This document shows, one piece after another, positions 39,492-47,134 of a stretch of DNA of 64,000 bases (positions within the stretch are counted from its first letter, which is position 1; every line of letters starts with the position of its first letter). Position numbers and translations under genes: made by a program. The stretch is taken from the NCBI RefSeq assembly GCF_003334815.1, contig NZ_QOWO01000005.1. One strand, written 5' to 3'. Below the pieces are notes generated by a model. That model was not told the DNA's origin. It worked only from the letters and a program-made list of their open reading frames with translations, and ran no database searches. This DNA is from Escherichia coli (GTDB taxonomy: Bacteria; Pseudomonadota; Gammaproteobacteria; Enterobacterales; Enterobacteriaceae).

Positions 39492-41378
39492 CTACTCTTC
39501 CATCGCCTGGCGGATCTGATCCAACGACGCAGGATCATCAATGGTCGTCAGATCTCCAGGATCGCGTCCTTCGCAAATCGCCTGGATCGTGCGGCGCAGC
39601 ATTTTTCCGGATCGCGTTTTTGGCAATTGCGAGACAAACCAGACGTGCGCCGGGCGGCCAAAGTTGCCAATCTGGCTGTCCACCAGCGCCATAATCGCCT
39701 TCTCTTGCGAGTGCGCCACATCACGATCTTCCAGACTGTCGCTCTCTTTCGGAATGACAAACGCCACCGCCACCTGCCCTTTCAGCGCATCTTTCACCCC
39801 AACCACCGCCACTTCGGCAACGCCCGGATGGCTGGAGATACTCTCTTCAATCTCGCGCGTCCCCAGCCGATGCCCGGCAACGTTAATTACATCGTCAGTG
39901 CGCCCGAGAATAAAGTGATAACCGTCAGCGTCACGGATGCCCCAGTCAAAGGTGGCGTACACCGGGCGGGAAAACAGCGACCAGTAAGTCTTCACAAAGC
40001 GGCCGTCGTCGCCCCAGATGGTCTGAATACACCCCGGCGGCAGCGGCCCTTCCACCACCAGCATCCCTTTCTCGTTGACGCCACACGGTTCGCCGGTGAC
40101 TTCATTAAGCAACTGCACGTTATAGCCATACATCGGCACACCGGGGCTTCCCAGACGCGTCGGCCTGTCGTCCAGACCGCGAGCAATCGCCATAATCGGC
40201 CAGCCGGATTCGGTCTGCCAGTAGTTGTCGATGACCGGCACATCCAGCGTATTGCTCACCCAACTGGCGGTCGGCTCGTCCAGCGGTTCTCCAGCCAGAT
40301 AGAGCACTTCCAGCGACGAGAGATCGTGTTTGCGAATTTCAGCGGTAGGGAATTTTTTCAGCACGCGAATGGCGGTCGGCGCTGAGAACATCCGGCTAAC
40401 CTGATATTTCTCGACGATTTTCCACCACACGCCGCAGTCCGGCCAGGTCGGCAATCCTTCGTAAACGATAGTCGCCATCCCCGCCAGCAGCGGCGCGTAA
40501 ACGATATACGAATGCCCCACCACCCAGCCGATATCCGATGCGCAAAAGAACACGCTGCCCGCTTTGCCGCCAAAAATGGTGTCCATCGAGGTCGCCAGCG
40601 CCACCGCATATCCGCCGACGTCACGCTGCACGCCTTTAGGTTTGCCGGTCGTGCCGGAAGTGTAGAGAATGCAGGAGGTTTCGTTGGATTCCAGCCACGC
40701 CACCGGTACCCGCGCGCCGATGTGTTGATGGCGCAACGACGCGAAATCGACATCCCGCCCGCTGACGCGCGCCATTTTCGCCAGCCCGCGATCCACCAGC
40801 AAAACATGGCGTGGCTGGTGCTGCGCCTGACTTATCGCATCGTCGAGCAATTTTTTATAGGGAATGATTTTGCCACCGCGCGCTCCGGCATCAGCCGAGA
40901 CAATCAGCACCGGTTTAGCGTCATCAATTCGCGCCGCCACGCTGTGCGAGGCAAATCCACCAAACACCACCGAGTGAATAGCGCCAATGCGCGCGCAGGC
41001 CAGCAGAGTAATATGCGCTTCGGCAATCATCGGCATATACACCAGCACCCGATCGCCGCGCTGCACACCCAATGAACGCAACATTGAGGCCACCGCGTTC
41101 ACTTCGTCATGCAGCTGACGAAAGGTAAAGGTGCGCTCTTCTTCTGTTTCCGAAGAGACGGCAATCAGCGCCAGCGCCTCTGGCTGTTTCTCCAGCCAGC
41201 GGTCGATGGCGTTGTGGCACAAGTTGGTTCGGCCTTCACAAAACCAACGGGCAAACGGCGGATTGCTGTGATCGAGCGTTTGCGTAAAGGGCGTCTGCCA
41301 GTCAATACGCCGGGCCTGCTCGGCCCAGAACTGCTCCGGTTCGTTAATCGAACGCTGATAAAATTCGCTAAAAGACAT
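39492..41378 (-). CDS. prpE: Propionyl-CoA synthetase
   Basis: 628 aa acyl-CoA synthetase; AMP-binding motif YTSGTTGKPKG. Confidence 0.95.
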   Translation of the reverse strand: MSFSEFYQRSINEPEQFWAEQARRIDWQTPFTQTLDHSNPPFARWFCEGRTNLCHNAIDRWLEKQPEALALIAVSSETEEERTFTFRQLHDEVNAVASMLRSLGVQRGDRVLVYMPMIAEAHITLLACARIGAIHSVVFGGFASHSVAARIDDAKPVLIVSADAGARGGKIIPYKKLLDDAISQAQHQPRHVLLVDRGLAKMARVSGRDVDFASLRHQHIGARVPVAWLESNETSCILYTSGTTGKPKGVQRDVGGYAVALATSMDTIFGGKAGSVFFCASDIGWVVGHSYIVYAPLLAGMATIVYEGLPTWPDCGVWWKIVEKYQVSRMFSAPTAIRVLKKFPTAEIRKHDLSSLEVLYLAGEPLDEPTASWVSNTLDVPVIDNYWQTESGWPIMAIARGLDDRPTRLGSPGVPMYGYNVQLLNEVTGEPCGVNEKGMLVVEGPLPPGCIQTIWGDDGRFVKTYWSLFSRPVYATFDWGIRDADGYHFILGRTDDVINVAGHRLGTREIEESISSHPGVAEVAVVGVKDALKGQVAVAFVIPKESDSLEDRDVAHSQEKAIMALVDSQIGNFGRPAHVWFVSQLPKTRSGKMLRRTIQAICEGRDPGDLTTIDDPASLDQIRQAMEE

Positions 41379-41417: not shown

Positions 41418-42869
41418 TTAAATGACGTACAGGTCGAGATACTCATTGACCGGCATCTGTTCCAGGCGAGCTCTGTCGAGAGAAACCTCCAGAATGCGCT
41501 GCTGTTGGCGAGTCGGGAACTGGCGCGCGAGATTGATTTTGAATTTATCGACCAGTTTCGGAATACCATCCTGACGGCGGCGAGCATGACCAATGGGGTA
41601 CTCCACCACCACTTCTTCAAATCGTGTGCCGTCGGTGAACTCAAGGGTAATGGCATTGGCGATGGCGCGTTTTTCCGGGTCGTGGTAGTCAGCGGTAAAT
41701 GCCGGATCTTCAAAGCAATTGATCTTCTCGCGCAGGGCGTCAATGCGTTTATCTTGCGCAACGTTGTCCTCGTAATCTGCCGCCGTTAAGCGCCCGAATA
41801 GCAGCGGGATCGCCACCATGTACTGAATGCAGTGATCGCGGTCTGCCGGGTTATTGAGCGGCCCTTTTTTGTCGATGATGCGAATACAGGCTTCGTGGGT
41901 GCGAATGGTCACTTTTTCGATATCCGCCGCCGTTTTGCCTGCTGCCTGCATCTGTTCATAGAGCGTCATCGCTGCTTCAACTGCCGTCTGGGAGTGGAAC
42001 TCCGCCGGGAAGGAGATTTTGAACAGCACATTTTCCATAACGTAGGAACCGTACGGGCGCTGGAAGCGGAACGATTCACCTTTAAAGGAGACGTCGTAGA
42101 AGCCCCACACCGGCGCAGTCAGGGCTGACGGGTAACCCATTTCGCCCGTTTTCGCCATCAGTGCCAGACGTACCGCGCGGGAAGTGGCATCGCCCGCCGC
42201 CCAGGATTTACGCGTGCCGGTGTTCGGCGCATGGCGATAGGTGCGCAGCGACTGACCGTCCACCCACGCCAGCGAAACGGCGTTGAGAATTTCCTCGCGG
42301 GTCAGGCCGAGCATTTCGGCGACCACGGCGGTGGAAGCCACTTTCACTAACAGAACGTGGTCGAGGCCGACGCGGTTAAAGGAGTTTTCCAGCGCGATGC
42401 AGCCCTGAATTTCATGGGCTTTGATCATTGCGGTCAGCACCTGTTTCATGGTCAACGGCGCTTTGCCGCTGGCGACCGCGTTGCGCGAAAGCCAGTCCGC
42501 CGTTGCCAGAATGCCGCCGAGGTTGTCGGAAGGATGGCCCCACTCCGCCGCCAGCCAGGTATCGTTGAAATCGAGCCAGCGGATCATCGCGCCGATGTTA
42601 AATGCCGCCTGGACGGGGTCGAGCTGGAACTGAGTTCCGGGGACGCGCACGCCGTTGGGTACGACGGTGCCGGGAACAATTGGCCCCAGCAGTTTTTTAC
42701 AGGCCGGGTATTCGAGAGCTTCCAGACCGCAGCCGAGCGTGTCGAGCAGGCAGTAATGTGCGGTGTCGTAGGCCACTTTAGAGCTGATTTCGTAGTTCAT
42801 GACGTAATCGACGATATCAACGATTTCACGATCAAATTCCGGGCGGATGTTGTTGATTTGAGCTGACAT
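41418..42869 (-). CDS. prpD: 2-methylcitrate dehydratase
   Basis: 483 aa ORF. Confidence 0.95.
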
Positions 42870-42902: not shown

Positions 42903-44072
42903 TTACTGGCGCTTATCCAGCGCGACAAACGGGCGGTCTTCCGGTCCAACATAATTGGCGGAAGGACGGATAATTTTGTTGTCCTGACGTTGTTCGATAA
43001 TGTGCGCCGCCCAGCCGGTGACGCGGGCGATAACAAACAGTGGTGTGAACATCTCGGTGGGAACGCCCATCATGTTGTAGGAAACAGCAGAGAACCAGTC
43101 GAGATTGGGGAACATCTTTTTGCTCTCCCACATCACCGTTTCCAGGCGATCGGCGATGTTGTACATCTTCAGCGAGCCGCCTTCCTGCGAGAGCTGCTTC
43201 GCCACACGTTTAATCACCTGGTGGCGCGGGTCAGCGATGGTGTAAACCGGATGACCAAAACCAATGACCACTTCTTTGTTTTCCACGCGCTTGCGGATAT
43301 CTGCTTCGGCTTCGTCCGGCGTTTCGTAGCGTTGCTGGATCTCCAGCGACACTTCATTCGCCCCGCCGTGTTTTGGCCCGCGCAGTGCGCCAATCGCGCC
43401 AATAATCGCGGAATACATATCAGAGCCGGTGCCCGCAATCACCCGACTGGTAAAGGTGGAGGCGTTAAACTCGTGTTCGGCGTACAGCACCAGCGAGATA
43501 TGCATCGCCTTTTCCCAGCTTTGCGATGGCTTTTCGCCGTGCATCAGATGCAGGAAGTGACCGCCGATGGAGTCGTCATCGGTTTCCGGTTGGATGCGTT
43601 CGCCGTTGTGGCTGTAGTGATACCAATAAAGGAGAATCGAGCTAAGCGACGCCAGCAGTTTGTCGGCAATATCCCGCGCGCCAGAGACGGTATGCCCCTC
43701 TTTTTCTGGCAGCGTGCAGCCGAGCGCGGAAACACCGGTGCGCATAACATCCATCGGGTGCGACGCCGCCGGTAAGGCTTCCAGCACGGTACGCACGTTA
43801 GCCGGTAAACCGCGCAGGGCTTTCAGTTTCGTTTTGTAAGCGGCGAGTTCGTCACGGGTCGGCAGTTTGCCGTGGATCAGCAGATGCGCCACTTCTTCAA
43901 ATTCGCAATGTTTCGCCAGATCAAGAATATCGTAGCCGCGGTAATGCAGGTCATTGCCACTTTTACCCACGGTGCAGAGCGCCGTATTGCCCGCCGGAAC
44001 GCCAGAAAGTGCCACAGATTTTTTCGGTTTAATGACATGGGTACTGTTTTGCAGGATCGTTGTGTCGCTCAT
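42903..44072 (-). CDS. prpC: 2-methylcitrate synthase
   Basis: 389 aa citrate-synthase family. Confidence 0.95.
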
Positions 44073-44418: not shown

Positions 44419-45309
44419 TTATTTCACCTGGCTACGGGCAAACAGGTTGTCGAGCTTCTCTTCGTACTGGTAGTAGTTGATGCTTTCGTACAGCTCGTTG
44501 CGGGTCTGCATGGTGTCGATGACGCTTTTCTGCGTGCCTTCCTGGCGCAGGACGTTGTAGACATGTTCAGCGGCGCGGTTCATGGCGCGGAACGCTGAAA
44601 GTGGGTACAGCGCCATTGCGACATGGGCGCTGCGTAATTCGTCGGTGGTAAACAGCGGCGTGGCACCAAATTCGGTGATGTTGGCGAGGATCGGCACCTG
44701 CACCGCATCGGCAAACTGGCGGTACATGGCGAGTTCGGTAATCGCCTCCGGGAACAACATCTCGGCACCCGCTTCAACATAGGCCTGCGCACGCTCGATC
44801 GCCGCATCCAGCCCCTCTACCGCCAGAGCATCGGTGCGCGCCATGATCACAAAATCAGGATCGGTTTTCGCATCCACCGCCGCGCGGATCCGATCCACCA
44901 TCTCTTCTTTCGAGACGATCGCTTTATTCGGACGATGACCGCAGCGTTTCGCACCAACCTGATCTTCAATATGCAATCCTGCCGCACCGGCTTTAATCAT
45001 CGATTTCACGGTGCGCGCCACGTTAAAGGCCGAAGAACCAAAACCGATATCCGCATCCACCAGCAGCGGCAGCGAACAAACGTCGGTGATACGGCGAATG
45101 TCGGTCAGCACATCATCAAGGGTAGAAATACCGAGATCGGGCAGCCCCAGCGAACCTGCCGCCACGCCACCGCCAGAAAGATAAATTGCCTGATATCCGG
45201 CACGCTGCGCCAACAGCGCATGATTAGCGTTGATGGTGCCAACAATCTGCAATGGATTTTCTTTAGTCAGTGCAGCGCGAAACGCTTTACCTGGAGAGTG
45301 TAGAGACAT
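44419..45309 (-). CDS. prpB: 2-methylisocitrate lyase
   Basis: 296 aa ORF. Confidence 0.95.
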
Positions 45310-45355
45310 AGCCCATCCTTTGTTATCAACTTGTTATTTGCGTTGATAAAGACAA

Positions 45356-45371
45356 AGCAAGGGGTGTGCCA
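45356..45371 (-). promoter_or_regulatory. Sigma-54 (-24/-12) promoter of prpBCDE
   Basis: Minus-strand TGGCAC-ACCCC-TTGCT (plus strand agcaaggggtgtgcca); predicted start about 35 nt upstream of the prpB ATG; PrpR is a sigma-54 activator. Confidence 0.8.
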
Positions 45372-45547
45372 CAATTGCCTTAATAAAATTAAATGTTTAA
45401 TTTCAATTTGTTAGAGATAAAGTCATGAACTAATCCGCAAATATGCGTTTCAGTTAACGTTTCAGGCAATGTTTCACCGCGTTTCATTGCAACAATTATG
45501 AAACAAGACTAAACCCAATATTCGGTTTCTTAACTTTGCGGTGCGCT

Positions 45548-47134
45548 ATGGCACATCCACCACGGCTTAATGACGACAAACCGGTTATCTGGACGGTATC
45601 TGTAACGCGCCTGTTCGAGCTGTTTCGCGATATCAGCCTCGAGTTTGATCACCTGGCGAACATTACCCCTATTCAGCTTGGCTTTGAAAAAGCAGTGACC
45701 TACATCCGCAAGAAACTGGCAAACGAACGCTGTGACGCCATCATCGCGGCTGGCTCTAACGGCGCGTACCTGAAAAGCCGCCTGTCAGTGCCAGTTATTT
45801 TGATTAAACCGAGCGGCTACGATGTGTTACAGGCACTGGCAAAAGCCGGAAAACTCACCTCTTCTATCGGCGTTGTCACCTATCAGGAAACCATTCCAGC
45901 GCTGGTGGCGTTTCAAAAAACCTTTAATTTGCGCCTCGACCAACGTAGCTACATTACCGAGGAAGACGCACGCGGGCAGATTAACGAGCTAAAAGCTAAC
46001 GGCACCGAAGCGGTGGTCGGCGCAGGGCTGATTACCGATTTGGCAGAAGAAGCCGGAATGACCGGAATTTTTATCTATTCCGCCGCCACCGTGCGCCAGG
46101 CGTTCAGCGATGCGCTGGATATGACGCGCATGTCGTTACGCCATAACACTCACGATGCCACCCGCAACGCCCTGCGTACTCGTTACGTGCTGGGCGATAT
46201 GCTCGGTCAATCACCACAGATGGAACAAGTACGGCAGACTATTTTGCTGTATGCCCGCTCCAGTGCGGCGGTGTTGATTGAGGGGGAAACGGGGACGGGC
46301 AAAGAGCTGGCGGCCCAGGCGATTCATCGGGAATATTTTGCCCGCCACGATGCGCGACAGGGCAAAAAGTCGCATCCGTTTGTTGCCGTCAACTGCGGGG
46401 CGATTGCCGAATCGCTGCTGGAAGCAGAACTGTTTGGCTATGAGGAAGGGGCGTTTACCGGCTCGCGACGCGGAGGTCGCGCCGGGCTGTTCGAAATTGC
46501 CCACGGCGGTACGCTGTTTCTGGATGAGATTGGCGAAATGCCGCTACCTTTGCAGACCCGGCTGCTGCGGGTGCTGGAAGAAAAAGAGGTCACCCGCGTC
46601 GGCGGGCATCAGCCTGTTCCGGTAGATGTACGGGTCATTAGCGCCACTCACTGCAATCTGGAAGAAGATATGCAGCAAGGACGTTTTCGCCGTGATCTGT
46701 TTTATCGGCTGAGTATTTTGCGTCTGCAATTGCCACCACTGCGCGAGCGGGTGGCGGATATTCTTCCGCTGGCGGAAAGCTTTTTGAAAGTGTCTCTGGC
46801 GGCGCTCTCCGCCCCATTTTCTGCTGCATTACGCCAGGGGTTACAGGCAAGTGAAACTGTGCTGCTGCACTACGACTGGCCAGGCAATATTCGTGAACTG
46901 CGCAATATGATGGAACGACTGGCGCTGTTTTTAAGTGTGGAACCGACGCCGGATTTAACGCCGCAGTTTATGCAACTGCTACTGCCGGAACTGGCGCGCG
47001 AGTCGGCGAAAACTCCCGCTCCACGCTTACTGACACCACAACAGGCACTGGAGAAATTTAATGGCGATAAAACAGCAGCGGCGAATTATTTAGGCATCAG
47101 CCGGACGACGTTCTGGCGGCGGCTGAAAAGCTGA
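45548..47134 (+). CDS. prpR: Sigma-54-dependent activator of the prp operon
   Basis: ORF track 45536..47134; start [15 protein letters not shown] at ATG 45548 gives 528 aa; Walker [15 protein letters not shown] motif, C-terminal HTH. Confidence 0.9.

Follow-up and report, generated by a model that had tools for sequence, protein, structure and literature searches.

The minus-strand motif at 45371–45356 of the window (the whole 64,000-nucleotide stretch of Escherichia coli DNA that was analysed) is the already-described sigma-54 promoter PprpB of E. coli prpBCDE, and as such it was already known. We assign a probability of roughly 0.95 to the reading that PprpB is a sigma-54 (RpoN)-dependent −24/−12 promoter activated by PrpR. 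Published experiments have shown that sigma-54 occupies this exact E. coli sequence both in vivo and in vitro, and in Salmonella they have shown dependence on rpoN, PrpR and IHF, together with co-activation by 2-methylcitrate.

The motif reads TGGCACACCCCTTGCT and matches TGGCAC-N5-TTGCW at 11 of 11 specified positions, with TGGCAC at 45371–45366, ACCCC at 45365–45361, TTGC at 45360–45357 and T at 45356, which bears out the correctly spaced minus-strand TGGCAC-N5-TTGC claimed in a first-pass annotation of the window. Its GG and GC doublets are exactly 10 bp apart, as the −24/−12 class requires, and if the start is at 45345 they fall at −25/−24 (45370–45369) and −13/−12 (45358–45357), respectively. 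The motif is on the same strand as prpB, and 46 nt separate its last base from the prpB ATG at 45309, in line with the 'about 45 bp' given before. The same annotation placed it 'downstream' of the divergent prpR, whereas it actually lies upstream, 176 nt from the prpR ATG (45548) and within the 238-bp intergenic region shared by prpR and prpB, a matter of loose wording and not of substance. The names prpB and prpR held as well, since the identities of prpR and prpBCDE were assigned with NCBIfam equivalog models and every match was far above the cut-off. From the spacing of the motif, transcription of prpBCDE is predicted to start at about 45345, which coincides with the start predicted in PMC4591121, 36 nt from prpB. 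The features of the locus are collected in Table 1.

Table 1. Features of the prpR–prpBCDE locus, in window coordinates
Feature	Position	Strand	Basis
Sigma-54 promoter core TGGCAC-N5-TTGCT	45356..45371	−	Sequence match, ChIP-seq site OS01, conservation
Predicted prpBCDE transcription start (±2 nt); 5' UTR of ~36 nt	45345	−	Placed 12 nt downstream of the C of the −12 GC
Shine–Dalgarno AGGA, 6 nt before the prpB ATG	45316..45319	−	Read from the sequence; conserved in Escherichia and Citrobacter
Candidate PrpR enhancer (UAS), five GTTTCA/TGAAAC half-sites, −102 to −159	45447..45504		Half-site scan, published consensus CGTTTCATGAAACG
A/T-rich spacer, candidate IHF bend site, −42 to −68	45387..45413		One-mismatch IHF-consensus matches
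Conserved palindrome TTATCAAC-N11-GTTGATAA, spanning the predicted start and early leader	45321..45349		Sequence, allele and species comparison
prpB, methylisocitrate lyase, first gene of the operon	44419..45309	−	NCBIfam NF008455, 561 bits against a cut-off of 353
prpC	42903–44072	−	NCBIfam equivalog
prpD	41418–42869	−	NCBIfam equivalog
prpE	39492–41378	−	NCBIfam equivalog
prpR, sigma-54-dependent enhancer-binding activator, divergent from prpBCDE	45548..47134	+	NCBIfam equivalog, domains

The experimental basis for the promoter is found in the literature. In Table 1 of Bonocora et al. (2015; PMC4591121), the sigma-54 ChIP-seq site OS01 of E. coli MG1655 is listed with the motif GTGGCACACCCCTTGCT and a FAT of 17; it points towards prpB, the predicted start lying 36 nt before that gene, and its 17-mer is identical to the window sequence. 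The main text of the same paper gives the EcoCyc status of the prpB promoter as 'P', that is, predicted. In agreement with the in vivo site, Shimada et al. (2021; PMC8743547) reported an in vitro gSELEX peak of the RpoN holoenzyme at 347864, in the prpR/prpB spacer. According to the main text of PMC4591121, prpB was not up-regulated when sigma-54 was overexpressed, which is to be expected, because PrpR is inactive under those conditions. In Salmonella, the orthologous site TGGCATAGCCTTTGCTTT was enriched 11-fold in ChIP-chip, and prpBCDE expression in the presence of a supplied promiscuous activator was 45-fold higher in the wild-type than in an rpoN deletion mutant (PMC3844500). As summarized in reviews of Palacios & Escalante-Semerena (2000, 2004), Salmonella prpBCDE requires prpR, ntrA (rpoN) and ihf, and PMC4987338, citing the 2004 study, names 2-methylcitrate as the co-activator of PrpR and gives its enhancer consensus as CGTTTCATGAAACG. 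For E. coli prpB, we found neither start-site mapping nor expression data from an rpoN mutant in the accessible literature.

These data also bear on how the promoter had been described. The word 'textbook' is justified for the core positions and not for the site as a whole, whose PSSM score of 9.47 is modest, mid-to-low among the sites in the excerpts of Tables 1 and 2 of PMC4591121. The view that the site represents expected biology and no novelty is correct, as the identical E. coli site is already listed in that paper. Enhancer-dependent transcription by PrpR, likewise proposed in the first-pass annotation, is supported by the OS01 17-mer, the gSELEX peak, the sigma-54 domain of PrpR and the half-site cluster upstream of the promoter.

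PrpR carries the domains PrpR_N, Sigma54_activat (AAA+, 1.4e-65), AAA_lid and HTH_8, with a Walker A motif GETGTGK at residues 245–251 and a sigma-54 contact loop GAFTGS at residues 301–306, one residue off the canonical GAFTGA. The GAFTGS loop is common to PrpR of Escherichia, Citrobacter, Photorhabdus, Herbaspirillum and one Burkholderiaceae MAG, and GAFTGA is found in the PrpR relatives from the other Betaproteobacteria examined and from Xanthomonas.

Upstream of the promoter, the five half-sites of the candidate enhancer are packed into 58 bp, compared with 0.047 expected per 70 nt, and form the densest such cluster of the 64-kb window. They include a split palindrome, GTTTCAT-N10-ATGAAAC, at 45481–45504, and three half-sites in the same orientation spaced 12 bp apart. 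Equivalent clusters were present in all related loci examined, and in Citrobacter and Photorhabdus they carry the contiguous palindrome GTTTCATGAAAC, which matches the published PrpR enhancer consensus. A contiguous palindrome of the GTTTCATGAAAC/CGTTTCATGAAACG type was not found in E. coli or E. albertii, where only the 10-bp-split form and the 12-bp-spaced half-sites occur. Judging from the half-site sequences, PrpR would occupy this cluster in E. coli. The E. coli prp system has been reported to be roughly threefold weaker, and we infer that this weaker PprpB may be related to the lack of a contiguous palindrome.

Between the enhancer and the promoter, the IHF consensus (WATCAANNNNTTR, with an A/T-rich flank) gave one-mismatch matches only, and the A/T-rich tract in which they lie is a putative IHF site; the sole exact match in the region is located at +10 to +22, downstream of the predicted start. 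The best match to a CRP box (TGTGA-N6-TCACA) near the enhancer had four mismatches, and a three-mismatch match in the regulatory region overlapped the prpR start codon, so that no convincing counterpart of the CRP site reported by Lee et al. (2005) was located there. A Cra box was not matched in the regulatory region at up to five mismatches.

Taken together with the published work, these elements suggest a mechanism in which the RNA polymerase–sigma-54 holoenzyme would sit on TGGCAC-N5-TTGCT as a closed complex unable to open by itself, while PrpR, encoded by the divergent gene, would bind the GTTTCA/TGAAAC half-sites ~100–160 bp upstream. The N-terminal domain of PrpR would sense 2-methylcitrate, produced from propionate via PrpE and PrpC, upon which PrpR would oligomerise, and an IHF-assisted bend in the A/T-rich spacer would bring it to the polymerase. 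Through ATP hydrolysis and its GAFTGS loop, PrpR would then remodel sigma-54, and transcription would begin at about 45345, with 36 nt remaining to the prpB ATG.

The conservation of the promoter was evaluated across taxa in species-representative genomes scanned once with PrpR, which gave 15 loci with full-length PrpR relatives, 11 of which had prpB in the fetched DNA; Salmonella was absent from the 80 loci that the comparison returned. All 11 of these other loci, from E. albertii, two Citrobacter, two Photorhabdus, five Burkholderiales (including Oxalobacteraceae) and Xanthomonas massiliensis, had a match of at least 10/11 to TGGCAC-N5-TTGCW on the prpB strand, 40–59 nt from the prpB start, against a background of one other match of at least 10/11 in the 143,668 strand-bases of those loci. 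This positional conservation, which extends over Gamma- and Betaproteobacteria, rules out chance as the origin of the motif. At the Herbaspirillum autotrophicum locus (L011), the PrpR-type activator is divergent not from prpB but from an 864-aa aconitase-like gene, probably acnD, which is preceded by an 11/11 sigma-54 motif (L011 2756–2771, minus strand), indicating that the pair of promoter and activator travels with differing gene orders of the methylcitrate pathway. Neither prpB nor the motif was present within the flanks of two Janthinobacterium loci and one truncated Massilia locus.

Within E. coli, AATTGTGGCACACCCCTTGCTTTG was invariant in five divergent alleles with identities as low as 95.7 %, while the positions just upstream of it were variable. 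The 351 bp around the motif are 100 % identical to those of strains E2865, O103:H2 and O111:H8, and among 5,426 complete E. coli genomes, 5,220 carried this region and 206 lacked it entirely. When 40-nt megablast queries were compared, the promoter was found in 2781 genomes at ≥99 % identity and in 32 at 90–95 %, compared with 2628 and 240 for the adjacent spacer, a small difference that constitutes weak evidence, as the comparison needs a 28-nt exact word and about 1,000 genomes therefore drop out. The aligned alleles are more informative on conservation than these counts.

Several side observations were made in these surveys. Nine of 5,223 prpR–prpB spacer matches were on records labelled as plasmid. 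In E. coli RM8082 (L082, NZ_CP043825.1 348849–353887), a natural deletion has removed prpR and the whole promoter region, so that yahO is directly followed by a 5'-shortened prpB (852 nt), and this strain should consequently be unable to induce prpBCDE. Allowing one mismatch in the motif yielded a single further site in the 64-kb window, TGGCGCATCGCTTGCT at 11303–11318 (plus strand, 10/11), in sense orientation inside an ORF of 223 aa (11205–11876). This sequence is absent from the main text of PMC4591121, including its Tables 1 and 2, and given this and its location within an ORF it is probably a chance match.

We considered whether the prpB motif could itself be a chance or non-productive sigma-54 site, a kind common in E. 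coli, with prpBCDE really transcribed from a CRP-activated sigma-70 promoter, and regard this as extremely improbable. An exact TGGCAC-N5-TTGC occurs once in the 64-kb window, where ~0.25 are expected, and since at least one was found in 21 of 100 shuffles, the match alone is not significant window-wide. Moreover, no transcript is known for many of the sigma-54 ChIP sites, according to the main text of PMC4591121, and a CRP dependence of PprpB is attributed to Lee et al. (2005) in papers that cite that study. However, the motif sits on the right strand and at the right distance in the 238-bp spacer that adjoins the gene of a dedicated sigma-54 activator (for the intergenic region, counting the correct strand only, simple arithmetic gives an expectation of ~5e-4), and its position is kept in the 11 distant taxa described above. 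The genetics and arrays from Salmonella also argue against a sigma-70 promoter under CRP control, and no sigma-70-like promoter for prpB or prpR passed a consensus scan of 45250–45620.

An added role, compatible with sigma-54-dependent transcription of prpBCDE, would be that the parked closed complex, by its occupancy, also dampens transcription from prpR, whose divergent promoter would overlap PprpB. The two promoters have been described as overlapping and divergent (PMC9452892), the sigma-54 holoenzyme occupies the site without activation according to the main text of PMC4591121, and at glmY and glmZ, overlapping sigma-54 and sigma-70 promoters are known to compete (PMC3844500). Nevertheless, with no sigma-70 match in the scan, the overlap of the prpR promoter with 45356–45371 is putative, and we consider such damping improbable.

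One further element of the locus is the palindrome that spans the predicted start and early leader. The arms of TTATCAAC-N11-GTTGATAA lie at 45349–45323, and they were invariant in the five E. coli alleles while the loop varied; in E. albertii and Citrobacter, ATCAAC/GTTGAT was retained, with 10–12 positions in the loop. The plus strand has TGTTA-N6-TGTTA at 45321–45336, which occurs nowhere else in the 64-kb window (0.14 expected), and 45324–45336, within the palindrome element, matches the IHF consensus exactly. Both TGTTA repeats share bases with a palindrome arm and with that consensus. Such repeats, at an 11-bp spacing, make up the ArcA box. For the spacer that precedes prpR, an ArcA box of at least 15 bits was predicted by Park et al. 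(2013), who saw no ChIP peak there and whose arcA comparison of expression showed prpR to be 2.9-fold higher. We put forward, tentatively and as a rather unlikely reading, that the element at approximately +10 to +25 is an operator just downstream of the sigma-54 promoter, with phosphorylated ArcA as the likeliest binder and IHF as an alternative. If so, binding there would stop propionate oxidation under anaerobic conditions, by preventing open-complex formation or early elongation, by repression of prpR, or by both. An RNA hairpin formed by the palindrome was rejected as the main explanation, since a transcript that begins at 45345 would include no more of the left arm than CAAC, and the minimum-energy fold makes no use of it; a hairpin would be viable if the true start were at least 4 nt further upstream.

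The confirmed promoter leaves current understanding unchanged, and PprpB is already in use in the pPro expression vectors (Lee & Keasling, 2005) and in propionate biosensors. It anchors the annotation of the prp locus as one sigma-54 promoter, one enhancer, a divergent prpR and a four-gene operon. As modest additions, we note the cross-phylum conservation in position of the promoter and enhancer wherever a PrpR-type activator is present, and the conserved palindrome.

Compared with known systems, the window, which derives from another E. coli strain, shares with prpBp of E. coli K-12 (OS01) the 17-mer, the flanking genes and the predicted 36-nt leader, and the promoter itself shows no difference. 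The locus resembles that of Salmonella enterica LT2 in its divergent prpR, its −24/−12 element, its upstream GTTTCA/TGAAAC enhancer and, putatively, the involvement of IHF, whereas the core is TGGCAT-AGCCT-TTGC in Salmonella and TGGCAC-ACCCC-TTGC in the window, and the palindrome that is contiguous in the published Salmonella consensus and in Citrobacter is split by 10 bp in E. coli. With classical enhancer-dependent sigma-54 promoters that loop with the help of IHF, such as glnHp2, nifH and Pu, it has in common GG and GC doublets 10 bp apart, activator sites ~100–160 bp upstream and an A/T-rich spacer, here with a putative IHF site. It differs from the classical systems in the activator, since PrpR senses 2-methylcitrate through PrpR_N in place of a receiver, GAF or V4R domain, and its contact loop is GAFTGS in place of GAFTGA.
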